Virus record (IMG/VR): IMGVR_UViG_3300029305_007310
Coordinates: 54,256 to 74,255 of that record
Reading direction: 5' to 3' (one strand)
Length of the DNA stretch: 20,000 nucleotides
Source: an uncultured virus (IMG/VR IMGVR_UViG_3300029305_007310)
Lineage: Duplodnaviria; Heunggongvirae; Uroviricota; Caudoviricetes
Position numbers and translations under genes: made by a program. The stretch's first letter is position 1. Each line of letters starts with the position of its first letter. Shown in pieces: positions 1 to 20,000 of the stretch. Under the pieces are notes generated by a model, which had not been told where the DNA came from, searched no databases, and worked only from the letters and a program-made list of their open reading frames with translations.

Positions 1-1
1 T

Positions 2-1153: not shown

Positions 1154-1180
1154 GAAGCGGCTTAAAAGCCGTTTTTGTTT
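1154..1180 (+). terminator. Intrinsic terminator-like hairpin
   Basis: gaagcggctt-aa-aagccgtttt followed by a T-rich tract, just after the ORF stop. Confidence 0.55.
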
Positions 1181-1205
1181 ATTTATGAAAGGAAGTGCTT
1201 AAATT

Positions 1206-2861: not shown

Positions 2862-2890
2862 ACAAACTAATTAAACAGACGATTACACAC

Positions 2891-2920
2891 GGGGTGATGG
2901 GTTAATTCCATCACCCCTTT
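2891..2920 (+). terminator. Intrinsic terminator-like hairpin
   Basis: ggggtgatgg-gttaatt-ccatcacccc-ttt. A second GC-rich hairpin (ggggcggt...accgcctc) lies at ~2936-2961. Confidence 0.6.
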
Positions 2921-3007
2921 AACTTTGCAAATAACGGGGCGGTTGAAATGGATACCGCCTCGCCCTCTTACGATTTGAAAATGAAAATTGGATTGGAGGA
3001 AATATAG

Positions 3008-3922: not shown

Positions 3923-3934
3923 GGTGGTGAAGTT

Positions 3935-4939
3935 ATGTCGTACAAACATTTTATACCACAAAATGTCGCGCCATTGGGAGTAAGACGTATCGGCATCTAT
4001 AACGCACAGGGAAACCGAGTAGGGCAAATCCCGCTCGGCTCCCTTACACCACCGAATCCGCACAAAAAGCTGTACAGTTTCGGTGCTCTGTCTGATGTGC
4101 ATGTTGTGTACGTTACGGCGGCTACGGATTTTGAAAGAGCGTTGGATTATATGAACGAAAACGAGGACGTGGCTTTTACCTGCATTGCTGGCGATCTTAC
4201 AGATGACGGAACGGCTGCACAGCTTGCCCAGTATAAAGCGGTTGTTGATGCTCATTCGCCTGATACGCCTGTATACGCCATTGCGGGAAACCATGAAAAG
4301 TATTCTGAACAACCGACGTTAATTCAACAGTACACAGGACAGCCCTTGTATTACAGTTTCGCGCATGGCGATGACGTGTTCCTGATGTGCGGATGCTATT
4401 CGTGGTCAAACGATGGTGTGTTCACAAAAGGCTATCTGCAATGGATTTACGAAACGCTTGAAGCCAACAGGAACAAGCGGTGCTTTATCTTTGAGCATGT
4501 GTTCCCTTGGGGTGACAGCGGAAATCCGGGCGAACTGTATCACTTCGATATGTTCACCGGAACGAAGGGGAGTGTATTTCAATCGCTTCTCCGACACTAT
4601 AAGAACACGGTGTTGTTTCACGGACATTCTCACACAAAGTTCGAGCTGCAAAGCGTGGATGATAAGGCGAATTACAGTGATGCACTTGATTATCGGTCTG
4701 TACATATTCCGAGCCTTGCTGTTCCTCGCGATATTGGCGATGGCGAACTTGCGAATATCTACTCTGAATCCGAGGGCTATGTCGTAGATGTGTACAAAGA
4801 CGGTATCCATCTTCGCGGCAGGGACTTTGTGAAGGGAGAGTTTCTCCCGATTGCGTCTTACTGGATTGATACCACGTTGCAGACCGTTGAGGCAGGAACC
4901 TACACCGATCCCACAGGGGTCATCATGACACAACCCTAA
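3935..4939 (+). CDS. Calcineurin-like metallophosphoesterase
   Basis: All five motifs present: SDVH, GDLTD, GNHE, EH, GHSH. RBS aaggtggtga. Confidence 0.9.
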   Translation: MSYKHFIPQNVAPLGVRRIGIYNAQGNRVGQIPLGSLTPPNPHKKLYSFGALSDVHVVYVTAATDFERALDYMNENEDVAFTCIAGDLTDDGTAAQLAQYKAVVDAHSPDTPVYAIAGNHEKYSEQPTLIQQYTGQPLYYSFAHGDDVFLMCGCYSWSNDGVFTKGYLQWIYETLEANRNKRCFIFEHVFPWGDSGNPGELYHFDMFTGTKGSVFQSLLRHYKNTVLFHGHSHTKFELQSVDDKANYSDALDYRSVHIPSLAVPRDIGDGELANIYSESEGYVVDVYKDGIHLRGRDFVKGEFLPIASYWIDTTLQTVEAGTYTDPTGVIMTQP

Positions 4940-4963
4940 ATTGAAGAAAGGCGAGTGAAATAA

Positions 4964-6760
4964 ATGGCTTTTTTAGGAAACGAAGCATTGCAACGACTTT
5001 GGGCGCACACGATCTCAAGGATCAGCTCGAAGGCCGATGAGATAAAAACATGGGTATCACAACAAAAAGTAAGCGCGTTTGAAAACGATGCTGGGTATCT
5101 GACTGAGCACCAGGACATCAGCGGCAAACTGGACGCGGACAAACTGCCAGAGGCTATCAACAACGCTCTTGCTCAGGCGGCGGAATCTGGGGAGTTTAAT
5201 GGGGAACCGGGTTATTCGCCGGTGCGCGGAACGGACTACTGGACACCTGCCGATCAGGAAGCAATCACGGAGGAAGTCAGTAATCAGCTATCTTTGGAGA
5301 TTGGGGTCGTGCCAGAATACGTCAAGGCTGAAGCGGAATCTGTGATCGAGCGTGTGAGTGCCGCGCAGGCTGGCAGGACGTTCACCTTTGCGGCAATCAC
5401 TGATTTGCACTATGGCAACGGCGGTTATACGGACGGCGTACTGCATTCATGTCAGGCTCTCAAATACATTGACGAGCGGCTGAAACTGGATGCTGTGGCT
5501 GTGCTGGGTGACTACACTGACGGATATCCTGCGGACGGGCTGGCGAATGCGTTCGGTGATTTCCGTGCTGTAAATGCAGTGCTGAATGATCTGCGGTTTG
5601 CGCCGAATCTGCGCACTCAAGGCAATCATGACTACTATGCAGACAATGCGCCAAAAATCCGCAGGCACATCCAGGCGTACTCCGAGGATGTTGTATGGGG
5701 CGATATTGCTGGCGGCTACTACCACAAGGATTTCGATGCGTACAAGCTGCGTGTTATTGTCCTCAACACTACCGAGACAGGGAATGCAAACATTGACTGC
5801 ACGACCGCACAGTATCAGTGGTTTGCAGACACACTCGACCTGAGCGCCAAAGAAGACGCTGAAGAATGGCAAATCCTTGTTCTGTCCCATCATCCGCTGG
5901 ACTGGTATCACATTGATGAAAGCTATGCGCTTGCCAGAATCGCCAACGCCTATCGTGAGGGAACAGCCTATTCCATCACCGGAGTTTCCTGCGATTTCTC
6001 CGACGGCAAAAATGCTGCTGTACTTATCGGCAACATTCACGGCCATATCCACAATCTGCTTGTGGACAAGGTGCATATCGGCAATGTGGTAAACGGCGTT
6101 AAGAGCGAGGTAGACCGTATGGCAACGCCCGAATCCTGCATCAACCGTGCGAACCAGTACACGGGCGCATGGCAGGAAGAAACGAGCTATCACAAGACCA
6201 TCGGCACGGCAGAAGATACGTCATTTGTGATCTACTGCATTGACCTCGACACCTACACGATACAGGCTGTGTGCTATGGCGCAGGCTATGACAGGACACT
6301 GACGTATTATGTGGCTAAAAACGGATATACAAATCAGATCCCTATTTCCGTTGATTCCGCCGGTGCTGTGTATAACGGGACGGGATACAAGGCCGATTAC
6401 CGTTTAAACTCATCGGGCACAGAAACGGAACTTGCTGGTACGGGTGTTACCGGCTTTATTCCGGTCAAGCGACTTGATGTAGTGCGGATGGAAAACATTT
6501 CCTACAAGCCCGGTGTCGATAGTACTGGCGACTATATTGCACTGTATGATTCCGACTTTACGAAAACGGTAACAATCAAGTCTCCATATGTTGCATCTCA
6601 TGACTATGTACTCGGCTCCAGGGTGCTGGATGATGACGGCAACTTGATTCAGTTTACAATGTCCGACAGCGCAGACGCTGGCCATGCGTATATGCGAGTA
6701 TCTTGCGCTGGCCTTGGCGCTGAATCGATCATCACAGTGAACGAGGAGATCACAGAATAA
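4964..6760 (+). CDS. Tail-associated metallophosphoesterase (fibre-like N-terminus, MPE domain, C-terminal module)
   Basis: Phage fibre-type linker motifs KVSAFENDAGYLTEHQDISGK and GYSPVRGTDYWT. MPE motifs TDLH, GDYTD, GNHD, SHHP, GHIH. Confidence 0.85.
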   Translation: MAFLGNEALQRLWAHTISRISSKADEIKTWVSQQKVSAFENDAGYLTEHQDISGKLDADKLPEAINNALAQAAESGEFNGEPGYSPVRGTDYWTPADQEAITEEVSNQLSLEIGVVPEYVKAEAESVIERVSAAQAGRTFTFAAITDLHYGNGGYTDGVLHSCQALKYIDERLKLDAVAVLGDYTDGYPADGLANAFGDFRAVNAVLNDLRFAPNLRTQGNHDYYADNAPKIRRHIQAYSEDVVWGDIAGGYYHKDFDAYKLRVIVLNTTETGNANIDCTTAQYQWFADTLDLSAKEDAEEWQILVLSHHPLDWYHIDESYALARIANAYREGTAYSITGVSCDFSDGKNAAVLIGNIHGHIHNLLVDKVHIGNVVNGVKSEVDRMATPESCINRANQYTGAWQEETSYHKTIGTAEDTSFVIYCIDLDTYTIQAVCYGAGYDRTLTYYVAKNGYTNQIPISVDSAGAVYNGTGYKADYRLNSSGTETELAGTGVTGFIPVKRLDVVRMENISYKPGVDSTGDYIALYDSDFTKTVTIKSPYVASHDYVLGSRVLDDDGNLIQFTMSDSADAGHAYMRVSCAGLGAESIITVNEEITE

Positions 6761-6796
6761 CTATCAGGAATGATTGTGACGTAAGGAGGTACGCTT

Positions 6797-6886
6797 GTGA
6801 TGAGCTTATGGCATTTGGTGTGGATCATCCCGCTGTCGGGTGGTATTGGGTTATTCGCTGCGGCTATTTTAAAAATGAGCGATTGA
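6797..6886 (+). CDS. Small single-pass membrane peptide (29 aa, MMSLWHLVWIIPLSGGIGLFAAAILKMSD)
   Basis: Strong RBS aaggaggt 6 nt before GTG-ATG. Hydrophobic. Below the ORF-track length cutoff. Confidence 0.7.
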   Translation: MMSLWHLVWIIPLSGGIGLFAAAILKMSD

Positions 6887-6938
6887 ATTATATGTTTATT
6901 TTGGATTAACGATAACGCACGGTGAAAAGGGTGAGTGT

Positions 6939-7841
6939 ATGATAACAGGACAGCAATTGGCGCAAATGGGCGTCGAATTGGCGACTGGCAAGCGTATTGA
7001 TTATGATGATGTAGACTGCCAAGCTTTTGTGGAGTTGATATTTGACGAGTGCGGGAAGGACATTAGTTATTCTGGCAGCAATGATATGTACCGCAATGCG
7101 TGCAGTTGGATAGGGACAATTGAAGAAGCAAAAAGAATTGGCTATCTCGTTCCAGGGGTAGCCCTTTTCATCCATTCTTTTAACGGTGGTGAACCAGAGA
7201 AATATCGCAAGGATGGAAAGGGTAACGCAGAACATGTAGGCCTTTACGTTGGAGAAAATGCTCTGGAAGACACTGATAAAAATGGGGAGTGGAGAATTTG
7301 CAATGTTGTTCATTCTTCTGCGTCTATGGATCGTGTTGCTGGGTCTACACTAAAAAATGGATGGACACATGTTGGATTATGGAAACAAATCGATTATGGT
7401 ATCCAGATCCAAAACAGTGAAAATGGCATATTGGAGAATTCCATGATTGGAGATGAAAAAATGGCAATTGAAGAGAGTTTTATTTATGCGACTGTAAAGA
7501 CAGCAAATGGTAGCCCCTTGAATTTCCGCACCAAGAAAAGCACAAAAGCTGATTTAGTGGCGCGTGTGCCGGAAATCACCAATGGAGCTCGTGTGAAAGT
7601 ATTGCGCGATGACGGTGATTGGTGCAAAATTTCCTACAATGGCTATAACGGTTATGTTTTAAGCGAGTTCCTTAACTTTGCTAATACTGTTAAGGAAGAG
7701 GCAGAGTGGGTAGATCAGACAATTGGCGATATGGATGATAAAGCAAAATTCTACCGCGTCTATGTTGATTTTACTACAAAGGATGAGGCTCTTGTTTTCC
7801 AAAAAGCTATGCAAGGGTGCCAAGTAGGTTCAGTAAAATAA
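6939..7841 (+). CDS. Endolysin: NlpC/P60 (CHAP-like) peptidase plus SH3 cell-wall-binding domain
   Basis: DCQAFV catalytic Cys and HVGLYVG His motif. SH3b-like LNFR...VKVL...DWCKISYNGYNGYV. Lies upstream of holin-like genes. Confidence 0.85.
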   Translation: MITGQQLAQMGVELATGKRIDYDDVDCQAFVELIFDECGKDISYSGSNDMYRNACSWIGTIEEAKRIGYLVPGVALFIHSFNGGEPEKYRKDGKGNAEHVGLYVGENALEDTDKNGEWRICNVVHSSASMDRVAGSTLKNGWTHVGLWKQIDYGIQIQNSENGILENSMIGDEKMAIEESFIYATVKTANGSPLNFRTKKSTKADLVARVPEITNGARVKVLRDDGDWCKISYNGYNGYVLSEFLNFANTVKEEAEWVDQTIGDMDDKAKFYRVYVDFTTKDEALVFQKAMQGCQVGSVK

Positions 7842-7854
7842 GAAAGATGGGTGA

Positions 7855-8400
7855 GTGGGAGTGGAAGAGGTGGTTAAATGGTTATCAGGCTGTACTGATA
7901 CCATGAAAGTTATAATTGAACTTGTCAAAGAAATTGGAATTGTTCTTGGTTTTTTGGGCACAGCGGTGTTATCATTTCGTAAATGGGTGATGAAGCCACT
8001 GGAGGCCGCTATTGAAGAGCAGAAAAAGGCAACAGTGGAGCTGAAAACAGATTATGAAAATAAAAGAGACGAAGTGCTTAAAGAGGTCGCTGTGCTTAAT
8101 GGGCGCATTATTGAGAATGACAAGAAAAGCGAAGAGCGTCATGAAAAACTTCGTGGTGAATTTAAATCTATGCGCTTGGAAATGGGTACAATGCAGGACG
8201 ATGTTGCTGACGTATTGGGTAATGAGCTCGAAAATGGGCACCACAAATTCATGACACAGGGTTGGTGTTCGCCTGCTGAAAAGCAACATTATGTTGATCT
8301 TCACAAGAGGTATGCAGCTCGTGGGCATAATCATTTGGCTCAACGCTACGAAGAAGATCTTTTAGAATTGCCGGATCATCCTCCACAGTATAACGGGTAA
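7855..8400 (+). CDS. Lysis-module membrane protein (one TM, coiled coil, holin-associated C-terminal domain)
   Basis: TM IGIVLGFLGTAVLSF. C-terminal Y..RGHN...LLELP resembles the Y..LGGN motif of phage holin-like proteins. Confidence 0.6.
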   Translation: MGVEEVVKWLSGCTDTMKVIIELVKEIGIVLGFLGTAVLSFRKWVMKPLEAAIEEQKKATVELKTDYENKRDEVLKEVAVLNGRIIENDKKSEERHEKLRGEFKSMRLEMGTMQDDVADVLGNELENGHHKFMTQGWCSPAEKQHYVDLHKRYAARGHNHLAQRYEEDLLELPDHPPQYNG

Positions 8401-8409
8401 GGTGATTTC

Positions 8410-8709
8410 ATGGCTGAAAAAACTGAAAAAATTGAAAATGTGAGCTGGCCAAAGACATCTGACAGGGAGTTTTCCAAGCGGATGTTTATTATTTTTATGT
8501 GGGCATTTTTTGCTCATGTTATTTTTACAATCATTGCTGAGTGGCTGTTTAATGTAGGTGGAAAAGCAGTAGAAGTATTCAAAATTTCAGTGCCAGTTTA
8601 CACGACGATCTTTGCGGCAGTCATTGTTAAGGGTGGCGTAGAGAACGTGTTTAAGGGTCAAAATTTGAAACAAACTACTGTGACTTCAACAACTGCTAAC
8701 AATGGCTGA
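8410..8709 (+). CDS. Two-TM holin-like membrane protein
   Basis: Two hydrophobic helices, RBS aaggtga, position in the lysis cassette. Confidence 0.6.
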   Translation: MAEKTEKIENVSWPKTSDREFSKRMFIIFMWAFFAHVIFTIIAEWLFNVGGKAVEVFKISVPVYTTIFAAVIVKGGVENVFKGQNLKQTTVTSTTANNG

Positions 8710-8726
8710 TGGGAGATGAATAGAAA

Positions 8727-9161
8727 ATGGAATGGTATTATGTTGTCGCAATTATTGCCGCTTTTGCGCTGTGTGTAGGTGGTTTTGTTTATCTGCGTAA
8801 GAAGGGTTATGTAAGTTCTGAACAGATGAACGGTCTTACAAATATTATTACTGGTCTTGCTACACTAGTTGGCGAATTAACTAAGAAAAATCAGAATGGC
8901 GCTACTGACATTCTTTACAATGTAGTAACACTTGTTCAGCAGGCTGTACTTGCGGCTGAGAATGACTGGTATAATAATAAAATCAGCAAGGAAGAGCGCA
9001 GAGAGCGCTGTATGGATGAATTATATAAGTTGCTTGCTGCTTATGATATTGTACTGACAGATTCTCAGTGGAATGTAGTGGATATTTTGGTTCGAGCCGC
9101 TTGCGAAGCGATTGGGCATACCACTGAAATTGAAAACCTTGCTGAGGTAACGGCAGAATAA
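8727..9161 (+). CDS. Phage holin, LL-H-family-like
   Basis: N-terminal TM followed by VQQAVLAAE...KEERR...ILVRAAC, the pattern of LL-H-type holins. Confidence 0.7.
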   Translation: MEWYYVVAIIAAFALCVGGFVYLRKKGYVSSEQMNGLTNIITGLATLVGELTKKNQNGATDILYNVVTLVQQAVLAAENDWYNNKISKEERRERCMDELYKLLAAYDIVLTDSQWNVVDILVRAACEAIGHTTEIENLAEVTAE

Positions 9162-9183
9162 GTTAGCATGAAAGCGTATTTTA

Positions 9184-9234
9184 ACCCTCCAGATGAGCAT
9201 ACTTTATGTATGAATTCAATGGAGGGTATTTTTT
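9184..9234 (+). terminator. Hairpin/terminator overlapping the RBS of the next gene
   Basis: accctcca...tggagggt stem with an inner catac/gtatg stem, followed by a T tract immediately before ATG 9235. Confidence 0.55.
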
Positions 9235-9588
9235 ATGGAAAATAAACGCATGGGGAGAAAGCCAGATTCAGTAGTTGCTGCTGAACGCGGGATTTCTCTT
9301 GAAGAGCTTAGAGCTGAAAGAAGAGAGCGCCTAAGAGCGAAAAATGAAAAACATGAAGAGCTTCCAGATCACAAGAAGGATTTCTACGATTATTTTGACA
9401 CAGAAATAAATGACATTGCATCAGCCATAGAAGAGTGTCGTGGCAAAATGGAACGATTGATTAAATGCCGCACTCATGAGCAAAAGCTAAACTATCTGTG
9501 CAAGCAATTCGTGGACGAAATCAAAAAGGTTGGGTTGGATCACGAGATCGCGCTTGGGAGAGCGAGAAGATTATTTGAAGAGAAATAA
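9235..9588 (+). CDS. Hypothetical charged helical phage protein
   Basis: 117-aa ORF with RBS ggagg. No recognisable motif. Confidence 0.7.
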   Translation: MENKRMGRKPDSVVAAERGISLEELRAERRERLRAKNEKHEELPDHKKDFYDYFDTEINDIASAIEECRGKMERLIKCRTHEQKLNYLCKQFVDEIKKVGLDHEIALGRARRLFEEK

Positions 9589-9633
9589 AAAAGAGGATGA
9601 TGTCCAAATAGCTGGGCACCATCCTCTTTTTTA
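9586..9633. terminator. Bidirectional intrinsic terminator between convergent phage operons
   Basis: aaaaaagaggatg...catcctctttttt inverted repeat with A and T tails. A second hairpin lies at ~9641-9672. Confidence 0.8.
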
Positions 9634-9684
9634 TGGCAAAGAAAAAGGGCCATGCCATTTGGCACAGCCCTGTAAGTTAAGGAT

Positions 9685-10188
9685 CTACGTCGTCATCCTT
9701 TTCTCATCCTTTTCAATGTTGCTTGCAAGAAGATTTTTTGCACGGATGTATTTCTCCATGCGATTAAAATCTTTTGTGGTTAGTTCACGAGATAGGCGAG
9801 AGGTGTCAAGATTGTGAGCGAGATCTGCGTACTTGACCAATTTGGCCTCCAAACTATTGCTCTCGGCAATAGCGGAAATATAGTCCATATAGGGAATATG
9901 GCGCTTATGGGTGAGTAGCTTCAGTGCTACAATGACTTCATGTGAGAAGCCTTGCAATGTGAGATCCTTTAATGCGCATGGAGGATTATCCTCAAAGACG
10001 TCGTGCAGAAGAGCGACAATGATGGTATCTTCACGCTGTTTATCGCTGGTATAGCCAAGATGGTTACATGTGTGGGCTACAGTGAGAGGGTGAAGGATAT
10101 AAGGATAACCACCCTTGTCGTACTGCCCGCGATGCGCAGCTTCTGCCATACACATGGCTTGCTTGATGAGAGGGGTATAGGGGAGCAA
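9685..10188 (-). CDS. HD-domain hydrolase of the RelA/SpoT / Mesh1 small alarmone hydrolase type
   Basis: AHRGQYDKGGYPYILHP, LLHDVFED and VKYADLAHN motifs. TTG start with RBS aaggagg. Confidence 0.85.
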   Translation of the reverse strand: MLPYTPLIKQAMCMAEAAHRGQYDKGGYPYILHPLTVAHTCNHLGYTSDKQREDTIIVALLHDVFEDNPPCALKDLTLQGFSHEVIVALKLLTHKRHIPYMDYISAIAESNSLEAKLVKYADLAHNLDTSRLSRELTTKDFNRMEKYIRAKNLLASNIEKDEKRMTT

Positions 10189-10202
10189 AGAGTATTCCTC
10201 CT

Positions 10203-10655
10203 TTATGCTTTGCCAGTGGAGCCAAAGCCTCCTGTACGTTCGGTAGTTGTATCGTCGTCATCCATAATGAAGTAGGGGACAATCATACCCTGAGCAATGC
10301 GATCACCTTGATTGATTAAAAAAGGTGCCAACCCATCATTGGCAAGCATGACGCCAATATTACCGTCATTTTTAGGGTTGGAATAATAATCGGCATCAAC
10401 CCACCCTTGAGTGTTTGCTAAGCAAATACGATGCTTGCCCATACTGCTACGTACATTGATAATCAAAGCGGCATTGTCAGGGATTTTTGCTTTTACATCT
10501 GTCCAGATCATCTGCATTGTACCGGGTTCAATACAATATTCAGAGGGAGAATGAAAGTCATAAGCGCAGGCATTTTTGGTAGCTCGCTTGGGGAGTTTAA
10601 TTTCTACATCTGGGTGCTTACGGTACTCGTCTGCAACAACTTCAAAACGTTTCAT
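10203..10655 (-). CDS. dut: Trimeric dUTPase
   Basis: Motifs AYDF, RSS, VDADY, GDRIAQ, RTGGFGSTG. Confidence 0.95.
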   Translation of the reverse strand: MKRFEVVADEYRKHPDVEIKLPKRATKNACAYDFHSPSEYCIEPGTMQMIWTDVKAKIPDNAALIINVRSSMGKHRICLANTQGWVDADYYSNPKNDGNIGVMLANDGLAPFLINQGDRIAQGMIVPYFIMDDDDTTTERTGGFGSTGKA

Positions 10656-10900
10656 TCCTCATCGTCCTCCTCGTCATCTTCATCCTCTTCATAGTCTTCA
10701 CGGTACTCCACTTCTGCCATGCTGTCAACCTCTCCGGGGGTGTAAATTGATGTGCCGCAATTGTCACAATGGAAACTTTCACAGCAGAAGTTTTCGAGGT
10801 CGATTACACCTGTGGGTGCGTTCATATCCAGGACAGAACTGCCAATGATTAGGTGTCCACACTGAGGACATGTACATGCGAGATGATATTCATTAGTCAT
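10652..10900 (-). CDS. Small zinc-ribbon protein with acidic tail
   Basis: CPQC...CDNC and a D/E-rich C-terminus. Start and stop overlap the neighbouring genes. Confidence 0.7.
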   Translation of the reverse strand: MTNEYHLACTCPQCGHLIIGSSVLDMNAPTGVIDLENFCCESFHCDNCGTSIYTPGEVDSMAEVEYREDYEEDEDDEEDDEE

Positions 10901-11087
10901 TGCTTTGTTTGCTCCTCTTTAGATTATTGAATCCTTCTGTGATAAGCCTTAAAATGTAGCAGGCAAGCGCGATTCCATATGAAAAGTGGCTAATAGTTGG
11001 AGAAAGCAAGTTCATAATGGCGCATAACGTCCAACAACCGGCCAGAATAAGATCCATGCAAGCAAGCGTTTTATAATGTTTTTTCAT
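10893..11087 (-). CDS. Small two-TM membrane protein
   Basis: Two hydrophobic segments, translationally coupled to its neighbours. Confidence 0.65.
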   Translation of the reverse strand: MKKHYKTLACMDLILAGCWTLCAIMNLLSPTISHFSYGIALACYILRLITEGFNNLKRSKQSND

Positions 11088-11287
11088 TCGTTTTCTTCCT
11101 CCGCTTCACAATCTTTATAATACAGCGCTTCACCACAGAAGCCACTTTCCTGTTTCTCTCTAAAGGCTTTACAGGGGCATTTCCATTCTTCCGTCTTAGG
11201 CATACCGAGGCAGAAGCCATTGTTTTTCTTGATCATTTTCTTTTTCTTTTTGAAGTATTCAGTATCGGGGTTGGGGCGAATAATCAT
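11084..11287 (-). CDS. Ferredoxin:thioredoxin reductase catalytic-subunit-like mini-protein (variant)
   Basis: NPD...NGFC...KCPC...C...LYYK layout matches FTR-c-like small proteins, but the CPC/CPC/CHC motifs read CLG/CPC/CGE. Confidence 0.65.
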   Translation of the reverse strand: MIIRPNPDTEYFKKKKKMIKKNNGFCLGMPKTEEWKCPCKAFREKQESGFCGEALYYKDCEAEEENE

Positions 11288-11299
11288 AGTAGGCTCCTC

Positions 11300-11620
11300 T
11301 CAATAAACGCGGTATAGAATATCGTTGTTATAGACTGCATTACACAAACGTTTAAGCAGTTTTTCCTTTTCTTCTACGGGGAGAGGAGTATGAGACACGA
11401 TCATTCTCATGGCATTGGGCAAGCCCATCCAATCGTGATAATTGCTGGCTTCAAGATGATCTTCTAGGGTTTTCACATAGCCAGGGAAGCCTTCTTCTTG
11501 AAGTTCTGGGTCATCTTTTGCCCAACGTTCCCAGCCTTTTGCTAAATCAGGAAGCTTATCAGCGGGACATGGATCATTGGATTGGTCATATGGGAAATTG
11601 GAAGTAATGTTATCGGTCAT
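11300..11620 (-). CDS. Hypothetical phage protein
   Basis: 106-aa ORF with RBS ggagg, overlapping the nrdG stop (ATGA). Confidence 0.7.
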   Translation of the reverse strand: MTDNITSNFPYDQSNDPCPADKLPDLAKGWERWAKDDPELQEEGFPGYVKTLEDHLEASNYHDWMGLPNAMRMIVSHTPLPVEEKEKLLKRLCNAVYNNDILYRVY

Positions 11621-12180
11621 GCTGGATTATCCTCCTGTGTGTGGTGAATTACGATCTCTCCTTTTTCAAGACTCTTTTGTACGTCGATAATTCTTTGGTT
11701 AGAACTGCCTCGGAAACGGAGGGTTTTATTTGCCATGGATTGAATAAAGGGCCCATCTACGAGCACATTGGTAAGAAGTAAAATAGGGTGGATAAACAGA
11801 TTTGAAGCATTGTATAGCTCTCCAAAAGTGGCTCCAGTATAGATCCATATATTATATTTTGTGCGGTTTTTGACACGGGCATGGATTTCTTCAAGGAGGT
11901 GTGTTAAGAAGAAGAAGGTTTTTTCAGGGCAAAAAAACGGGTCTCCACCAGATAGGGTAATTCCCTTTAAGAAGGGGCGTTTAACGATTTCTTCTGCGAT
12001 ATTTTCAATTGTTTGTGTGGTAATTGGAACACCAAAATTGGGGTCGTGGGATTCAGGATTGTGGCAACCAGGGCAGTTGTGAGGGCAACCACTAAGATAG
12101 ATAGTTGCCCTCACGCCCTCGCCATCTACCAGACTCTCATAATTGACCCCTGCTAAATAGGGGTATAGAGTAGTAGACAA
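11617..12180 (-). CDS. nrdG: Anaerobic ribonucleotide reductase activating protein (radical SAM)
   Basis: SLVDGEGVR, CPHNCPGCHN (CxxxCxxC), GITLSGGDP, VLVDGPF, FRGSSNQR. Directly downstream of nrdD. Confidence 0.95.
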   Translation of the reverse strand: MSTTLYPYLAGVNYESLVDGEGVRATIYLSGCPHNCPGCHNPESHDPNFGVPITTQTIENIAEEIVKRPFLKGITLSGGDPFFCPEKTFFFLTHLLEEIHARVKNRTKYNIWIYTGATFGELYNASNLFIHPILLLTNVLVDGPFIQSMANKTLRFRGSSNQRIIDVQKSLEKGEIVIHHTQEDNPA

Positions 12181-12195
12181 AGAGTATAAGCCTCC

Positions 12196-12675
12196 TTAAA
12201 CAGGCGTGTATGCAGTATGTTTTACACGATCTTTAACTTCTGCCTGTTTGCCGTCATTAAAGCGACGATAATCTGAGCTAAGATAGCCAGTTACACGGCG
12301 TAGCTGCGTGATATTCTGACTTTCACACTCAGGACATTCAGCATCAAATTCACTTTGATAGCCGCAGTCATTACAGGTGTCAATAGGGAAGTTAAAAGCA
12401 AGATAGGGGATATCAAGATCCATGGCGTAATTGATGATTGCCTCAATTGCGTCAGGATTGTTCATAAAGGTAGATTCACATTCGATATATGTGATTGTGC
12501 CGCCAGTACAAAGCTTGGTGAAAGGCGCCTCGATACGAAGCTTTTCATAAATAGATACCTTTTCCCATACGGGTACATGGAAAGAGTTTGTAAGATATTC
12601 ACGATCTGTTACATTGGGGATAACGCCATACTGATCACGGAGAACAGTTAGCGCAGTTCTGCAGAGATTCTCTGC
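12196..12675 (-). CDS. nrdD: Class III ribonucleotide reductase, exon 2 (AENLC... to stop, 159 aa)
   Basis: YLTNSFHVPV, zinc site CNDC...CPEC, glycyl-radical motif RRVTGYL. Joins exon 1 in frame to give YATP-AENLC. Confidence 0.93.
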   Translation of the reverse strand, partial: AENLCRTALTVLRDQYGVIPNVTDREYLTNSFHVPVWEKVSIYEKLRIEAPFTKLCTGGTITYIECESTFMNNPDAIEAIINYAMDLDIPYLAFNFPIDTCNDCGYQSEFDAECPECESQNITQLRRVTGYLSSDYRRFNDGKQAEVKDRVKHTAYTPV

Positions 12676-13533
12676 CACTTTGACTATATTTTCATCCTTT
12701 TTATCAAAGGAGTCTGCTCTTTCGTCCAATAAAGGACTACTCTACTCACTCATTGGTTTTCGATAGTCGATTCACATTTACAAGACAAGTATTCTTCTTT
12801 AGTGCAATAACGGAAATAATAAGGCTTTCTAACGGGCCTTTTATATTTGCATTGACGGGAAATAGTTGTTTTTTCGATTCCAGTAGCCGAGTTAGCCTCG
12901 CAAATTGAACCCCAGATACCTAGAAGCTCATTTGTGTAACGGTCGAACATTTTGACTGGATGAGATTGAGAATCGTTAACTCCTTTGTCATTGATCATTA
13001 GACCGTCATCGACTGCTTTTTGTGTATTTTCTTGGGCGGTAGTCCAATATAAATTTTCCACCCTGTTATCACTTTTGATGTTGTTTTTATGTCCAACATA
13101 GGGAAGCTTATCTGGATTGGGGATAAAAGCTTCGGCGACAAGGCGATGAATTCTTCTGGAGACCAAACCCTTTTTGCCTTTATATTGAATACCGCAAGAC
13201 ATATACCCATAAACAGAGTTTAGAGCTTTTTTATAAAGGACTCTTGGATGATTGTTGCGATGCTCTATAGCATATACAGACCCGTCAATATCTATCCAAT
13301 GCTCGTAAGCACCGCGAATTAGTTTTGCTGTTTTTGGTAGCTCTATATTTATTCACCTCTTTTTTTGTTTGTTTTACTTGTCTTGATTTAGCACAGGATT
13401 CCACAAAGGTTCCCTGTTAGCACTGCCGCAAGTCGCCATTTCCTGCGATTGACTTTCGCCCGGCAGCACACCCTTTAAGGTTAAGCAGATTTTTCATTGC
13501 ATGTTACCATGCAAGCCCCCACAGAAAATTCTC
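12676..13533 (-). mobile_element. Group I self-splicing intron (858 nt) in nrdD
   Basis: 5' exon ends in U (ACCCCU) pairing with intron GGGGG (P1). UUUUCUGU pairs with 3' exon GCAGAGAA (P10). Intron ends in G. Core-like elements GCUAACAGGGAA, AAUCCUGUGCUAAAUC, UCGACUAUC and AAUAUAGUC. Confidence 0.92.
12750..13346 (-). CDS. Intron-encoded HNH homing endonuclease (I-HmuI-like, C-terminal NUMOD1-like domain)
   Basis: IHRLVAEAFIPNP...VGHKNNIKSDNRVENLYW...EN HNH motif and C-terminal GIWGSICEANSATGI...ISRQCK. Frame is open 48 codons upstream of ATG 13202 to an ATA placed 7 nt after GAGGTG. Confidence 0.85.
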   Translation of the reverse strand: MELPKTAKLIRGAYEHWIDIDGSVYAIEHRNNHPRVLYKKALNSVYGYMSCGIQYKGKKGLVSRRIHRLVAEAFIPNPDKLPYVGHKNNIKSDNRVENLYWTTAQENTQKAVDDGLMINDKGVNDSQSHPVKMFDRYTNELLGIWGSICEANSATGIEKTTISRQCKYKRPVRKPYYFRYCTKEEYLSCKCESTIENQ

Positions 13534-15279
13534 AGGGGTAGCGTAACAGGAGAAATTCAGCCCATTCTTTTCACTTGCATGAGCCGCGAACTCGTTGATC
13601 GCTTGAACAACTTGATAAGCAAATTCACGGGCTTCAAGGCTATTTACATGGTTGGCGCCAAATAATGCTTCACACATTTCAGCTACCCCGATAAAGCCGA
13701 TGGCAAATGTATTGTGCTTGAGCGCCTCATATACATTATCAACGCACTTATCAGCATCTTTAATGACGCCGTTTTCATACATAAAGGGCGCTGCAGCCGG
13801 AGACTGTTTGGCCATAATGGCAAAACGTTCAAGATGAGCTTTTTCTACAAGATCAAGGGTGGATTCAAAGGCTTCCCAGAATCCCGTAAGATTGGGTTTA
13901 TCACGCTCACCAAGGCAAATACCATACTCGATACCAAGCTTGGGGAGAATGATAGTAATAGGAGTGTTATTACCACGTCCTATGCGGTTGTAGCCATAAC
14001 CATTGCGGTCATAGCCGATCATGGTCCTGCAGCCCATGGTACTAAAAATGGTATCAGGATCGTCAGGATCTTCATGAGCCTGAGACCAGTCGCCATTGCA
14101 AATATTGGGATATATGCGTTTGGACAACGACTTAATAGCGAGCTTTTTCAGGTCATAATTGGGATCGCCAGGAGCTCCATTAACCCCCTTCTTGTGAGAA
14201 AAGATGCCGATGGGGAAGATGGAGGTGACATGATTCTTACCTACGCCGTCTAGACTGGTTTCAAGAATCCAACGAGTTACAAGACGTCCTTCGGGAGAGG
14301 TGTCGCGTCCGTAGTTGATAGAGGTAAAGGGAACCTGCGACCCAGCTCTGGATTCGAGCGTATTAAGGTTATGGTACAAAGCCTGAGTGGCTTGCAAACC
14401 CTCACGTTCAAGCATTTCCATAGCATACTTCTTTGCTTTGGGGAAAAGATTGAACAGCTCGTCCTCAATGGAGAGATCATTTTCAATGCAGACTTTTTTG
14501 AAATCTTTATAAGAGCTTTCTTCAATTGTCTCGTTGTCAGGGTTTTCGAGGTATTTGATGCCATCGATAATATGAGAGTAAAAACTGCGCTTCACATAGG
14601 GAGCGAGATCGTAGTCCAAGTGGACACTGCCCACACCGCCATATTGGCATTGGGATTGCAACTGAAATGCTACTGCTACCAATTGGCATGCTGTGGAAAA
14701 ACTAGACGGTGGGCGAACATCGCAGTTGCGGGTTTTAAAACCTTGAGTGAAAAGACGCTTGAAGTCTAGCATGAGGCAATTGTGGGCACCAATATTGTAA
14801 TGATCCAGATCATGATGATAAATGCAACCATTTTTATGTCCATCGGCCACGTCTTTGCTCATGTTCTGGTCTAAGGCAATGCTTTTCTGGATTACAGTTG
14901 CGGCCTCATTTTTGCGACCGCCAAAAGAGCGTTCATCCACATTGGCATTAGCATTTTCTGTGGTCTCGCCCAAGGTTTTTTCTAAAACCTTTTTCATAAT
15001 CTCGTTGCGGAGATTTCTCTGCTTTGTTCTTTCAGCTCTATATAGGATATAACTCTTGGCAACATCCTTGCGATCAGAAGCCATGAGTTTTTCTTCAACC
15101 ATATCCTGAATAGCTTCTACCGATAGACGGCTGGGAATCAAATCGATCTCTTCTGCAATTTGATTGGCAAGTCTGATATCAACTGGGCCAGTTTCTTTCA
15201 TTGCGGCTAAAACCGCGTCTACAATTTTTGATGGATCAAAATCAACGATTCGTCCATCGCGCTTTACTACTTGTTCCAT
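13534..15279 (-). CDS. nrdD: Class III ribonucleotide reductase, exon 1 (582 aa; spliced product 741 aa)
   Basis: ATP cone (VVKRDGRIVDFD), YHHDLD, HNCL, QVPFTSINYG, MGCRT, NFSCYATP. Confidence 0.95.
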
Positions 15280-15330
15280 TTCTCAATCCTTTCTTTTGGT
15301 CGTATGAGGAATACAAACTGAGATAGGAAC
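15273..15330 (-). promoter_or_regulatory. mRNA hairpin sequestering the nrdD Shine-Dalgarno and start codon
   Basis: GUUCCUAUCUCAGUUU (15330-15315) can pair with GGAUUGAGAAAUGGAAC (15289-15273), with one bulge and one mismatch. Inner GUAU/AUAC stem. Folded by eye only. Confidence 0.6.
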
Positions 15331-15366
15331 AAAAACCGGGGGTGCTCTTGGTGATAGAATTGGCAT
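15283..15366 (-). CDS. Putative leader/arrest peptide of nrdD (MPILSPRAPPVFVPISVCIPHTTKRKD)
   Basis: RBS aaggagagtg. RAPP at codons 7-10. Stop is 3 nt before the nrdD ATG. Confidence 0.6.
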   Translation of the reverse strand: MPILSPRAPPVFVPISVCIPHTTKRKD

Positions 15367-15387
15367 CACTCTCCTTCGACGAAGATT

Positions 15388-15621
15388 TTAATTTAGTTTG
15401 AAATCTTTTTTATTAATTCTCCCGTGACGAGTACCATATTTTTCGATATTAAGATAATATATGTGTTTTTTTGACTCGAACCTTGCACAGAAAAACCAGC
15501 CGCTATCAAAATATTTACCTAAATGGATGTTATAAGTATGGGTTTCAAGGAAAAAGACATCCCATCCATGAGCCCTTTTTGTCCAGGGTGTATATGCTCT
15601 ACGCAAAATTTTAAGTTGCAT
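15388..15621 (-). CDS. Hypothetical aromatic-rich 77-aa protein
   Basis: In operon, RBS aaagga. Resembles the adjacent 77-aa ORF. Confidence 0.65.
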   Translation of the reverse strand: MQLKILRRAYTPWTKRAHGWDVFFLETHTYNIHLGKYFDSGWFFCARFESKKHIYYLNIEKYGTRHGRINKKDFKLN

Positions 15622-15624
15622 GTG

Positions 15625-15858
15625 TTAATCCTTTTTATTGATATACTTCCCTTTCATAAAACCGACTCCAGAAAAACGAGCGAACCAAACGGTTTCTTCC
15701 CATTGCCATTTCAAATAAATGAACCATTCTCCGCAGTCTGTGAACCAGTCAAAAAAGAAGTGCCAAGTACGGAAGCGAAGGATATCCCAGCCTTCCAGCT
15801 CACAATTATTATCAATGAGTGTGTAGTATCTATTTAAAAATTTAGGATAATGAGACAT
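15625..15858 (-). CDS. Hypothetical aromatic-rich 77-aa protein
   Basis: In operon, Trp/Phe-rich, overlaps the upstream gene end. Confidence 0.65.
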   Translation of the reverse strand: MSHYPKFLNRYYTLIDNNCELEGWDILRFRTWHFFFDWFTDCGEWFIYLKWQWEETVWFARFSGVGFMKGKYINKKD

Positions 15859-16318
15859 CTTTCAGCCCTTCTTTGGCTTTCATATACTCAATGCAATCGT
15901 TGATATAAAAAGCGGCCTTTTTGGCATCCTCAACAGGCTTTCCTTTGCGTTTAAGGCGCCAACAATATTTGATAACATTGCCAATGCAGAAGCCCTCGTA
16001 ACCATCCAGATCCTTGAGAACTTCTTTGAGGACTTCCTTACATTCATATTTTTCCAATGCATAGTGGGAAGGATGATTAACCATATCCACTACTTCAGGA
16101 GGCATGGGAAAGTCTTCCTGAATGGGATTGTCGCAGGGAATGTAGTCACCAAGACGATAACCTTTGGGAGCCGGTGCATTACTAGGGACTGCAGGATCTG
16201 TAAGCGTATTGGGTAAAATGGCACGGTCAGTATCTGTTGTTGTTCTATTAGAATACGTTAAATCCACTTCCTTTAATAAAGAAGGGCGCGGGACATAAGC
16301 AGCAATCATTTCACTCAT
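15842..16318 (-). CDS. DUF3310 protein (T7 gp1.7 nucleotide kinase / SaV-like family)
   Basis: DMVNHPSHY...GFCIGNVIKYCWR...KGKPVEDAKKAAFYI. Likely start is ATG 16318 (MSEM), overlapping the thyX end, not the track's 16537. Confidence 0.8.
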   Translation of the reverse strand: MSEMIAAYVPRPSLLKEVDLTYSNRTTTDTDRAILPNTLTDPAVPSNAPAPKGYRLGDYIPCDNPIQEDFPMPPEVVDMVNHPSHYALEKYECKEVLKEVLKDLDGYEGFCIGNVIKYCWRLKRKGKPVEDAKKAAFYINDCIEYMKAKEGLKDVSLS

Positions 16319-17066
16319 TCGTGCTCGCCTCTTCCTTGTTGTCCATCCATGTAGGCCATTCTTTAGGCACGACTTTAGGCGTCCAAGATTTAGACACATG
16401 GTAGACATCATCAAGCCTAGGGTGCATACCACAGGTGTCCTTTTTGCTTTCAGTGCAATAGGGATGCTTTTTGTCTTTTTCGCACTTTGGTACAAGCATG
16501 TCTTTAAAAGCATTGTCAGTTGCCATATTGAATTCATGAACCATTTGCCGGACTAGTTTGCGGATTTCCCATTGAGCGCGAGTACAAAGGCGCTCATGGC
16601 AAAGGTGGATGAACTCGCGAAGGTTGAAAGTTGCAATGAGGCTGCAACAGGCTGCATTAGGAAGGACAAAACGAGCGTCTTCTTGGGGTACACCTAACAA
16701 ACAAAGTTTGGTGTAATCGGCCAAAGCACGGGTCATAGAAGTTTGAAAAATTTGCCTAGCTTGTTCATTGTTTTCGATAGTGGGTGGTACAACAAACTGG
16801 AAGCCAGATTTGTAGGAAACATAGCGCTGACTTTCTACCGAGGGAGAAATAAGTCTATGTCTTGTCAATTGAGCCAATAGCACTCGGCTGACGCCTTCAA
16901 CACGGAAGGTAACAAAAACATGCTCTAAGATGCTATGATGACCACTGTTATAACAATGGCGTACAATGCGACCATCTAGGCTCGGGGTGGATTTGTAACA
17001 CATAGAGGCCGCTTCTTCTGCAGCCATTACAGGGTCGTTTGTGAACCGGGTTAGAAGTACTTTAAT
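16311..17066 (-). CDS. thyX: Flavin-dependent thymidylate synthase
   Basis: GHHSILEH, RHRx7S motif (RHRLISPSVES-QRY), EDARFVLPNA, ERLC..AQWEIR. ThyX-like N-terminus KVLLTRFTNDP extends upstream to an ATT codon at 17066 after aaggagatga. Confidence 0.95.
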   Translation of the reverse strand: MKVLLTRFTNDPVMAAEEAASMCYKSTPSLDGRIVRHCYNSGHHSILEHVFVTFRVEGVSRVLLAQLTRHRLISPSVESQRYVSYKSGFQFVVPPTIENNEQARQIFQTSMTRALADYTKLCLLGVPQEDARFVLPNAACCSLIATFNLREFIHLCHERLCTRAQWEIRKLVRQMVHEFNMATDNAFKDMLVPKCEKDKKHPYCTESKKDTCGMHPRLDDVYHVSKSWTPKVVPKEWPTWMDNKEEASTNE

Positions 17067-17216
17067 GGTTGGTCATCTCCTTATTTTTATTTTGAGTGCT
17101 GGCTAACCAATCAATGTGACCACATCCTTATTAGTTATTTTATAATCTTTTTGAGTAGGTACAAAACAAGATAGATACTTGGATTCTCAAGTATCCTTCA
17201 TTGTTTCGTTGAACTT

Positions 17217-17245
17217 ATTATACCACTAATACGGAACAAGTGCTA
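17217..17245 (-). promoter_or_regulatory. Extended -10 sigmaA-type promoter for the thyX-nrdD operon
   Basis: TGgTATAAT on the minus strand (17225-17217), with a weak -35 (TAGCAC) at 17-nt spacing. Confidence 0.5.
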
Positions 17246-17315
17246 TAGATAATATGGTATTATTTTTAGTAATATGACACATGTATAGGCACGATAAATC
17301 GCAATAAATTGCAAC

Positions 17316-18626
17316 TTAATAATACCCATAAAAATCATAAATGAAACCAGTTGAGAAGTGTGTTTTGCGCCTCAGCTGATAACATATATTGCCCATGCAC
17401 ATGCAAAGCGCCTGTTTGCCGCAGGAATGACATTTTTGAAAACAATGGTCGAGATGAAAGGCGATTCTCGGCAAAAGGCCCATATCCTCCAGCAGTGTGA
17501 ACAGCGGAAAAAAGATCGCCATTGGGGGCAGCATGACGGAAACAACCCAGGAAGTAACGCGGTAGATTCCATTGATAAGCAGATCCGTCAGCCATACCGG
17601 AGAAGAAATGCTTTGAAGAGAGGTTTGCAGGAGACTGCCAAGTCGGTTCAGCTGTTCGCTGAGCCATGCAGAAGGGACATTGGCGCCTTGAATGGTCAGG
17701 AAGAGAATGCCGCCAAGCAGTGCAATGCCTGTAAAAAGTGCAAACCACCTGCGGCAAAGAAGAGTGTCAAATACCAAGGATCCTTTTGCTTTTATGCGCC
17801 TTTCAGAAACTGCTGTCTGACAGAGCACTCGCGCCTGACGGTAGCTTTCGGCAATCAGCAAAGGCGCTATGCGTTCTTTCGGATATCCTGCTTTGAGCAA
17901 ATCCTTCTGGATGTTCTGAATCATTTGACAGATATGTGCATCCGGCTTCGAATGTGCAGTCAGCTTATCAATATAGGAAGCATCCGCAATCAAGGCACGC
18001 AAGGCAGCAAGGCGGCCGCTTCCGGAATGGACAACTTTTGGCGCAGAATGATTCAAACCGTTCATAAGGCTCTGAACAGCCTGTTCCATTTCCTGCGGAT
18101 ATACAAGCAAATCCTCGCGGCATTGTGCCGTAGAACAGGCCGTTTCGGCTGTTCGTTTCAGCAGTATGTCAAGACCGCATTTGCTGCGTGCACATATGCC
18201 AATCACGGGAATCTGCAAAAGCGCTTCCAACTTTTCGCAGTCAATGGATACACCGGCTTTCTGCGCCTCATCCATCATATTGATGCAAAGCACGGTGCGC
18301 GGACAGTTTTGAGCGATTTGCAAAGCGAGGTTCAGATTTCTTTCCAGCGACAGCGCATCGCAGACCACAATCACGGCGTCCGGATGCTCAAAGGTTAGAT
18401 AGTCGCTTGCCACAATTTCTTCCGCCGATCCGTTCAAAAGGGAATATGCACCGGGAAGATCGATCACTTCCCAGCGGATGTCTTTTGTCATCACACTTCC
18501 GCGCGCAACCTCCACCGTTTTTCCGGCCCAGTTCCCGGTATGCTGCTTTAAACCGGTTAATGCATTGAATACTGTGCTTTTGCCGACGTTTGGATTCCCG
18601 CACAAAGCAATTTTCAATGTTTTCAT
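17316..18626 (-). pseudogene. feoB: Ferrous iron transporter B, 5' part (412 codons) interrupted by the prophage, plus a 24-aa read-through tail
   Basis: G1 GNPNVGKST, HTGNWAGKTVE, DLPG, NMMD and VSVMLPPMAIFFPLFTLLED...RIAF. The expected FGC continuation and C-terminal membrane domain are absent. Confidence 0.9.
17380..17400. other. Prophage attachment junction (attL/attR) inside feoB
   Basis: FeoB homology stops after ...GKQALCMCMG (codon GGC at 17393-17391) and AT-rich unrelated sequence follows. Confidence 0.75.
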
Positions 18627-18880
18627 GCTTCACCTCCGCTTGCGATACATTCCACTTGGGAAGCATCCGCCTGCCTCAAAGCGATGATGGTCTGCTTGAT
18701 TCGGTAGGCTCTTGGATCGCCAAAAACAGATGAAAACAGACAAGCAACAGAGGAGCCAGGCGTAAAACCAAGGTCGCAAAGCCTTTCGTGCATCGGCCCG
18801 GAACCGTTTATCCGGTGAATGGTCGCACTTTTACCACTTGGAAGATGTGACAAAGGGATCGTTTGCTGCATTGTATGCAC
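18623..18880 (-). CDS. feoA: Ferrous iron transport protein A
   Basis: RLCDLGFTPG...GDPRAY...IALR. Overlaps the feoB start. Start is GTG 18880 or ATG 18871. Confidence 0.92.
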   Translation of the reverse strand: MHTMQQTIPLSHLPSGKSATIHRINGSGPMHERLCDLGFTPGSSVACLFSSVFGDPRAYRIKQTIIALRQADASQVECIASGGEA

Positions 18881-18951
18881 CGCCTTCCTGAGATCGGGAA
18901 AAACAGCCCGTTTTCAGCATATCGGAATACAAGGAGCTTGTGCCTGTCAGC

Positions 18952-18980
18952 TTGTCATTTTTTTGAATTCATGTTACGAT
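18952..18980 (+). promoter_or_regulatory. SigmaA-type promoter for the SpoIID-domain gene
   Basis: TTGTCA-17 nt-TACGAT with a TG extension. Confidence 0.55.
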
Positions 18981-19064
18981 ACGGCTGCAAAACGGATAAA
19001 TGCAATTTTACAGGCGGCTGATTCGTATCTTTCATGGAATGGATCGATCACAAGGAGGCATTGG

Positions 19065-20000
19065 ATGCTGGCATATTCAACATGGAAAAAAGGATTGCTG
19101 ATATTCATGACGGCTGCGCTTCTGATGGGAACGGTTTCTTTGGGCGCGCAGGCTGAAGATGTGCCGTACGCTCCCGCTCGCAGTCAGCTGGTGCGTGTTT
19201 TGCTAAGCCGCCTCAATCTGACCGACAGGATGGATGTAACGTTAAGCACGGATTATCTGCTGAAGACGGAAGACGGAAGCCAAATCCATTTCCGCGAAGG
19301 AAGCGAACTGGCGTTTTTGCTGCGTGACGGGGCCATTTATCTATATTACGAAGACATGGTGCTGGAAGCGGGCGGACGGCTCACACTCGAAAGGACCGCA
19401 GAAACGGGTGGTTTTTATCTGACCCATTTTCCGGCACTGTACTTGGGAAATCTGGAACTTCGTATCGAAAACGGTGTTCTCAGACCAGTTCTGACCATCC
19501 ATGTGGAGGATTATCTGCTGGGTGTTGTGCCTTATGAAATGGGCGAGGGTTTCCCGGCAGAAGCATTGAAGGCACAAGCCATCACAGCCCGTACCTACGC
19601 GCTGCGAAGCCAGGATCCGGATGCCCCTTATGATGTGGTGGATACCACCAACGATCAGGTGTTTAAAGGCTACATGCCCGGCAATCCACAAAGCGAACAG
19701 GCTGTGAGAGAGACGCGCGGAATCTGCGGTTTTTACAAAGGTCGCCTTGCCCTGTGCTACTATTCGGCCAGCAATGGCGGGCAGACGGAGCTTGTGGAGA
19801 CGGTGTGGCCCACGGAAGCGGATTATGGTTACTACACGTTTGGGGAAGACCCGTACGATGTGGAAAATCCGCTGAGCACGGTGCGAACGTTTGAATTGGA
19901 AAAACAGCCGAAACTGGAAGATCATCAGGCTTTTGGGAGGCTGATTGCGCAGCAGCTTGAAGGCACATTGAAGGAGCGCGGATGGGATACAGAGCCCGAA
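19065..20000 (+). CDS. Secreted SpoIID/LytB-domain protein (3'-partial, host gene)
   Basis: RBS aaggagg, signal peptide ending AQA, and VEDYLLGVVPYEM...EALKAQAITARTYA...DTTNDQVF...YSASNGGQTE motifs. Runs off the window, so absent from the ORF track. Confidence 0.9.
   Translation, partial: MLAYSTWKKGLLIFMTAALLMGTVSLGAQAEDVPYAPARSQLVRVLLSRLNLTDRMDVTLSTDYLLKTEDGSQIHFREGSELAFLLRDGAIYLYYEDMVLEAGGRLTLERTAETGGFYLTHFPALYLGNLELRIENGVLRPVLTIHVEDYLLGVVPYEMGEGFPAEALKAQAITARTYALRSQDPDAPYDVVDTTNDQVFKGYMPGNPQSEQAVRETRGICGFYKGRLALCYYSASNGGQTELVETVWPTEADYGYYTFGEDPYDVENPLSTVRTFELEKQPKLEDHQAFGRLIAQQLEGTLKERGWDTEPE

Follow-up and report, generated by a model that had tools for sequence, protein, structure and literature searches.

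An uncultured virus record ends in host DNA, where an intact feoA is followed by a feoB frame that runs directly into phage sequence. This locus raises the question of whether a prophage has simply landed in an iron transporter gene or whether its excision rebuilds that gene as a step in sporulation. We analyzed a window of 20,000 nucleotides, which is the end of the 74,255-base virus record (positions 54,256 to 74,255) and is phage as far as the junction. Its relevant features are the following, where L010 is the separate record carrying the other prophage end.

18819..20000, plus strand: host gene with a SpoIID/LytB domain (PF08486, TIGR02669), divergent from feoA and running off the window end.
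18915..18943, minus strand: predicted sigma-K-type feoAB promoter, with GCAC, 16 bases, and a -10 box mismatched at its first base.
18623..18880, minus strand: feoA, intact, 85 aa (PF04023).
17402..18626, minus strand: 5' part of feoB, of host origin, comprising codons 1-408 and the first base of Met409; it encodes the GTPase domain and the initial transmembrane part.
17392..17403, minus strand: 12-bp core, common to the other prophage end (L010 7708-7719), with the putative crossover dinucleotide TG at 17401-17400.
17374..17399, minus strand: phage attachment-site arm P', an imperfect inverted repeat of the other end's arm.
17316..17390, minus strand: 24-codon non-FeoB tail from phage DNA, which terminates a 436-aa truncated frame (stop at 17316).
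17353..17373, plus strand: 21-22-bp motif, with a second copy at L010 6001-6022, just after the recombinase's sigma-A-type promoter.
16311..17027, minus strand: phage thyX (PF02511), the first phage gene inside the junction, identical in the provirus record G001.
1..17399, no strand: prophage body in the window, with tail, lysis, and nucleotide-metabolism genes.

A sequence-only reading of this DNA had described feoA and feoB codons 1-412 as uninterrupted and followed by phage, which agrees with our analysis. Both frames are open, feoB extends from 18626 to codon 412 (17391, minus strand) through FeoB_N and the start of Gate, and the FeoB match ends at ...KQALCMCMG. Beyond this point lie phage thyX, nrdD, nrdG-like, dUTPase, lysis, and tail genes, and GC content drops from approximately 0.50 to 0.41-0.44 across the junction. 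The proposed site motif, MG|FGC, had to be corrected to MCMG|LGC in the present host. Placing the switch exactly after CMCMG was accurate for the visible end of homology but not for the crossover: since the 12-bp core recurs in the phage arm, we position the latter about 9 bases earlier, on the Met409 TG. An Rfam scan of the window returned nothing at gathering score. Elsewhere in the window, phage nrdD is divided into pieces of 591 and 177 aa that flank an HNH endonuclease ORF (12196-15279, minus strand), as expected of an intron with a homing endonuclease.

The other end of the prophage, predicted to carry a large serine recombinase (LSR), the remainder of feoB, and a short core in common with this end, was found in L010. 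Over the initial 6,044 bases of G001 (125,944 bases), this record agrees exactly, and it then extends beyond G001; G001 in turn was compared with the window phage over two stretches and is identical to it at 10,714/10,714 and 2,337/2,338 bases. L010 encodes, in order, RecD2, a terminator, a 54-aa ORF, a 544-aa LSR, the core, the feoB 3' half, and a ribokinase-family host gene; the recombinase, 54-aa ORF, and feoB 3' half thus all lie outside the window (L010 5878-8551). The LSR (L010 6045-7679) contains catalytic, recombinase, and zinc-ribbon domains (PF00239, PF07508, PF13408) and sits 30 bases from the core. The same PF07508 profile had no match in G001 because that record stops before the LSR. 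The concern that the feoB 3' half might be absent or degraded does not apply here, as it is intact from MCMGLGCN through to its normal end. Joining the two halves in silico yields a single 688-aa FeoB frame. The halves cover positions 1-364 and 361-594 of the TIGR00437 profile, for which the intact homolog P0002 scores above the cut-off, and together contain the GTPase domain, gate domains, and FeoB_C of a full-length FeoB. Both junctions have the 12-bp core in common, and the reconstructed attP arms are symmetric at 18 of 25 positions about the Met409 TG (11 about the next axis).

The complete prophage measures ~127,980 bp, summed over three overlapping records, with its two ends on separate records joined via identical overlaps rather than on one molecule. 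We can give virtually no credence to an assembly chimera of host feoB with free phage, which the sequence-only reading had listed as a hazard. A 470-base contig from run X1, possibly the source sample, bridges the junction (17165-17634) with zero differences; the other end matches in its core, LSR, and 3' half; for both the LSR and the 3' half, the longest contig listed has 137,223 bases, which matches the length of the prophage together with its flanks; and the same codon is split in other genomes. The feoB/phage junction is real and marks one end of a prophage of ~128 kb that an LSR inserted.

Among 17 proteins scanned, the prophage carries terminase, portal, structural, tail, holin, polymerase, and helicase genes. 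The closest terminase matches are 25-26% identical and come from ~81-kb Bacillus phages (12 of 27 matching records listed), and the portal protein matches only Clostridium phage Amboise (25%) among the matches listed. Since neither protein has an SPbeta-like match among those listed, we do not class the prophage as an SPbeta relative. A search of viral contigs with the FeoB 5' half found no relative, and a motif scan of metagenome contigs gave 0 matches. Two very long ORFs in the tail region (1,695 and 2,109 aa; G000:C1:32635-48105) have several small genes between them by eye, with a further ORF interrupting the end of the second, a possible case of insertions in a tape-measure gene. A tyrosine-integrase-family gene lies far from both ends (G000:C1:1897-2811); as SPbeta MrpR has a repressor-like role, one might guess at a similar one here. 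The 21-22-bp motif, possibly an operator, has one copy just inside attL, and on the excised circle its copies would be inverted and enclose the LSR and attP. It was not found in the four small elements in which it was sought; in L066, the test overlapped itself.

Relatives do use the same site. Among 120 FeoB matches, three other proteins break off at this motif and continue into a foreign tail, and 67 of 120 matches to the 3' half start at MCMG or MG, with about 10 more showing a foreign N-terminus up to the motif; the length filter on 3'-half matches favors those starting at the motif. Searches with the LSR placed three of 15 loci (L012, L021, and L022) inside feoB. In an even sample of the class Clostridia, 11 of the 150 listed matches (of 181 in all) are interrupted at the Met409 codon. 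All 13 listed matches with short motif-starting frames were examined: 11 contain foreign DNA at the codon; L059, which is intact and lies at the end of a contig, and L061, which is not judgeable, were removed from the count. The count leaves out two rows starting at query residues 36 and 38 and rows with 430-511-aa frames. Another apparent split, G023, was discarded since its contig ends before the site. A related LSR, 36-43% identical to that of the phage, accompanies seven of the 11 split loci. Of the other four, one holds a different prophage with an unrelated LSR, two are cut off by a contig edge, and in the last, 8.3 kb of sequence showed no LSR. Within the host's own family, the split was seen only in the seed genome (1/63, with three candidates scored per genome).

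Seven of these elements have both ends, measuring 2,156, 2,662, 3,214, 4,583, 5,410, 5,426, and 13,536 bases. All seven rejoin feoB in frame in silico, making eight of eight with the phage. By eye, their ORF lists show no phage genes, and those of the five smallest show no relaxase or replication gene. The LSR gene points one way relative to feoB in L012, L022, L062, and L063 and the other way in L010, L021, L066, and L068-L071. As the TG is not palindromic, these two orientations imply repeated inversion of attP with respect to the LSR gene. They also led us to consider a palindromic AT crossover, which we set aside: arm symmetry is best at TG in 8/8 elements, and L068 shares only TG.

The elements carry ferritin, MarR with an ABC transporter, pyruvate formate-lyase with its activase, alkylation repair, PHP, and SPFH proteins. 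Ferritin is the sole cargo of a 2.7-kb element that splits an iron transporter (L021 3198-3707), and pyruvate formate-lyase and activase occupy a 4.6-kb element whose LSR has no coiled coil (L066 1527-4453). Such widely differing cargo at one site, together with the two LSR orientations and the mobile-element-like genes seen by eye in L063, would be in keeping with cargo islands, either SCC-like or helper-dependent satellites, that use the LSR for horizontal spread and restore feoB as a by-product. The LSR also bears a weak likeness to CcrB, although at 109 bits against a cut-off of 900 it falls far outside the SCC/Ccr group. We consider this explanation improbable, given that relaxase and replication genes were not seen in the five smallest elements, that the putative promoters described below are of the mother-cell rather than the vegetative type, and that coiled-coil loss impairs intermolecular integration in LI integrase, according to the text available for PMC5499577, which speaks against spread.

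A second alternative is that the site is a safe harbor without any switch. The conserved motif in a vegetatively unused paralog would then be a cheap and widespread attB, with excision occurring upon induction or at random and feoB simply off in carriers, where its loss costs little. We regard this as unlikely, though with more to recommend it than the cargo islands. At L064 16257-18590, an unrelated LSR (22% identity) in a second prophage occupies the same feoB codon, which is convergent targeting and speaks for a safe harbor. Against this alternative, both feoB halves are open and in frame in 8/8 elements, despite LSRs at feoB that are only 32-62% identical among these hosts, and the LSR is still catalytically intact in 2-5-kb elements in which neither phage nor transfer genes were seen.

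The recombinase modules show further signs of domestication. The catalytic serine motif and zinc ligands are kept in 11/11 aligned LSRs, and four of the 11 have lost most of residues 388-496 (4, 4, 16, and 36 residues left), a region modeled as two long helices that form the coiled coil. The starred branches of a quick tree imply at least three separate losses; the LSR of L068, which also has part of its C-terminal end missing, may be decaying. A small ORF lies just upstream of all seven full-length LSRs (partial in L012) and is absent before three of the four short ones. In the available text of PMC5499577, LI integrase without its coiled coil is described as carrying out efficient attL x attR excision in vivo while integrating poorly. 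A mother-cell -10 box, CATANNNT, occurs within 110 bases before nine of 12 modules (null mean 2.2, max 5), which also argues against a safe harbor; the 12 modules include L013 and L015, whose location in feoB is not established. The strict sigma-E pattern precedes 3/12 modules (null 0.24, max 2) and a relaxed pattern, whose form was chosen after viewing the sequences, 6/12 (null 0.6, max 3).

The module of the window phage is one of the three with no such box: before its 54-aa ORF, no mother-cell promoter was matched (best 6/8 positions). A terminator lies just upstream of this ORF, and a sigma-A-type promoter for the LSR is predicted inside it, an arrangement like that of ordinary temperate phages. 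These features favor the safe harbor, and, as no mother-cell promoter was found before the candidate directionality-factor gene, excision of this prophage may depend solely on lytic induction.

We assign the 54-aa ORF as a candidate recombination directionality factor. It directly precedes the phage LSR, and its homologs lie just ahead of related LSRs in L013, L015, and L021; small ORFs of 47-57 aa are conserved upstream of LSRs, with seven full-length matches in one search. A complex model of the 54-aa ORF with LSR residues 312-544 scored 0.73 (best control 0.00), with runs agreeing in at least 86% of contacts and a partner pLDDT of at least 71. The mark used for such models was reached by 116/157 solved pairs versus 2/215 mismatched pairs. 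The modeled interface comprises the coiled-coil base and the last strand of the LSR. Since solved LSR-directionality factor complexes are on record (PMC11722253), the passing score may reflect likeness to those structures. The ORF had no match in Pfam, PHROG, or NCBIfam, and the best score in an atlas search, 0.79 (TnpW on 13% of members), is a lead only.

We also looked for excision products in contigs from four DNA runs (depth 2-5), where phage depth approximately equals host depth. The suggested check for junction products found no host attB among the loose ends listed and one run X6 contig compatible with attP. Loose ends at 17392 in X1 and X6 had been candidates for host attB and turned out to be intact feoB of other organisms. 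In the X6 contig, the match breaks off precisely at the edge of the core (17403), 13 letters before the contig ends; this would fit free attP of the kind made by lytic induction and in this respect also suits the safe harbor.

Because the argument for a developmental switch turns on when feoB is expressed, we examined the host operon. Intact FeoB homologs are 44-72% identical to the split protein (55% for that of Candidatus Limiplasma). Host genomes hold additional FeoB paralogs, and the split feoAB, judged by the promoter pattern and spoIVA co-occurrence described below, appears to be a copy other than the housekeeping one; the further paralogs also speak for a safe harbor. The sequence-only reading had reported a sigma-K-like pattern upstream of feoA, which is indeed present (GCACA at 18943-18939 and GATATGCT at 18923-18916), as well as the lack of a clear sigma-A promoter, matched by our finding of no sigma-70-type site upstream on the feoA strand. 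It likewise noted no clear Fur box before feoA; our best match was 11/19 positions to the consensus, so its suggestion of iron limitation as a trigger is unsupported.

The sigma-K-like pattern is a conserved putative promoter of this feoAB group. AC-N16-18-CATANNNT occurs upstream of feoA in 18/23 regions in strict form and in 19/23 with a G variant, versus a mean of 0.31 and a maximum of 3 in shuffled controls; a sigma-E pattern occurs in 0/23. These regions comprise 19 family loci hand-picked from 63, L012, L021, L022, and the window, where G replaces the first C of the -10 box as the single mismatch. At four paralog loci, no sigma-K pattern was matched. Five split loci at class level carry the strict pattern in two cases, the variant in one, and neither in two.

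Occurrence across genomes also points toward sporulation. In 301 genomes from the family of Candidatus Limiplasma, 58/63 with an ortholog (at least 48% identity) have spoIVA versus 108/238 others; a paralog control was mildly enriched (36/49), more weakly than the ortholog. In 399 Clostridia genomes (two genomes of the class sample were left unscored), 170/179 with an ortholog have spoIVA versus 131/220 without. These counts come mostly from incomplete genomes, and the statistics ignore phylogeny. No ortholog was matched in 131/301 spoIVA-positive class genomes, so this FeoB is not essential for sporulation, and the many spore formers without it are a further point for the safe harbor. The SpoIID/LytB-domain gene adjoins feoA also in L021 and L041.

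Our literature search on feoB and sporulation led to a single source, PMC3789822, on C. difficile. In its available text, sigma-K promoters have AC and sigma-E promoters ATA, the CD1518-CD1517 feoAB operon falls to 0.05 (20-fold down) in a sigK mutant, and its mapped promoter reads AC-N17-CATA...T. The split feoB, which agrees with CD1517 in promoter layout and operon shape, is probably its ortholog; a CD1517 homolog appears, as one table row, among Moorella spore proteins in PMC8745062. The literature examined contained no spore phenotype of this FeoB. Taken together, the sigma-K pattern and spoIVA co-occurrence suggest that the insertion target is mother-cell-specific, and the apparent link to sporulation is much stronger than the window alone could show.

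Only a handful of genes in spore formers are known to undergo programmed rearrangement. The closest parallel is SPbeta, which, with its remnants, interrupts spsM in B. subtilis and B. amyloliquefaciens and uses SprA/SprB (PMC4191935, available text). There, as here, an LSR has placed a large prophage in a gene under sigma-K control (predicted in our case), a small directionality factor is encoded (58 aa versus our 54-aa candidate), and a full phage and shrunken remnants share one site. The feoB system differs in its transporter target, in having the small ORF adjoin the LSR, and in the absence of a mother-cell promoter match before that ORF. The skin element in sigK (B. subtilis SpoIVCA; C. 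difficile CD1231/CD1234; PMC5025042, available text) similarly pairs a sigma-A-type LSR promoter, as reported for CD1231, with a small factor, and the predicted mother-cell-type promoter before the module in small feoB elements is another likeness. The sigma-E promoter of the skin factor has no counterpart found in the window phage. Unlike skin, the feoB elements interrupt a sigma-K-dependent gene rather than sigK, vary in size and cargo, and include coiled-coil-less LSRs. The elements gin (gerE, B. cereus; PMC5595907), yin (yabG, C. botulinum; PMC10747680), vfbin, and vrin are also serine-recombinase elements, phage-like or not, in mother-cell genes; those are reported from few strains, whereas the feoB site is split across the class sample described above (11 of 150 listed matches). 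Finally, CD1518-CD1517 has the same two-gene layout and promoter arrangement, and no interruption of it is reported in the available text of PMC3789822.

Excision of feoB as a sporulation step is apparently undescribed so far. Our literature search found no account of feoB as a prophage, recombinase, attB, or skin target; a 2013 survey outside that search (PubMed 24015831) could list the site. The word feoB is absent from the main text of PMC4191935 and PMC5025042, as far as available, and of PMC5595907 and PMC10747680, and from the text and eight supplements of PMC10083194 (figures were outside the search in all cases).

We therefore return to the opening question with a graded answer. We consider it probable that the feoB family of elements represents a mother-cell gene rearrangement of the skin/SPbeta type at a new target; for the window's prophage itself, we are evenly divided on whether excision follows a sporulation schedule. 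The att sites, LSR, intact feoB halves, and recurrence are directly visible in the DNA, while conservation suggests sigma-K control, the directionality factor, and mother-cell promoters. In the mechanism that we propose, a temperate phage LSR would integrate at the Met409 TG of a sigma-K-transcribed feoB paralog. Vegetative cells would not need this paralog, and the insertion would therefore be cheap. Late in sporulation, the LSR and small directionality factor would recombine attL with attR and rebuild feoB in frame, assuming the chemistry of the family. By analogy with SPbeta (PMC4191935, available text), excision would take place in the mother cell and, because that cell is terminal, the spore would keep the element. 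Shrunken, phage-free descendants or relatives would occupy the same site across Clostridia with their recombinases under mother-cell-type promoters, and some, having deleted the coiled coil and mostly dispensed with the small factor, may be biased toward excision. The window prophage would be the full-size state of this series.

Since small inserts without viral genes occupy this position in many relatives, excision to rebuild feoB may be widespread. A broader version of this proposal, which we advance tentatively and hold to be somewhat doubtful, is a class-wide developmental rearrangement in Clostridia in which elements as large as a 128-kb phage and as small as 2-kb remnants split several percent of sigma-K-type feoB genes, always at one Met codon, and are excised in the mother cell. 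Stepwise domestication, including repeated coiled-coil deletion, would then have produced a factor-free excision enzyme with sigma-E timing.

These results would add feoB to the targets of programmed rearrangement, seemingly a common one in gut Clostridia, and they point to a late mother-cell role of a FeoB-type transporter. If the proposal is true, host genes caught inside an element would be lost only from the dying mother cell. With states from live prophage down to minimal element occurring naturally, the series offers a test bed for the evolution of "active lysogeny", and the natural coiled-coil-less LSRs test the current model of directionality control. The new LSR and its candidate factor, with a defined attB conserved across the class, could also serve as an integration tool for gut Clostridia.
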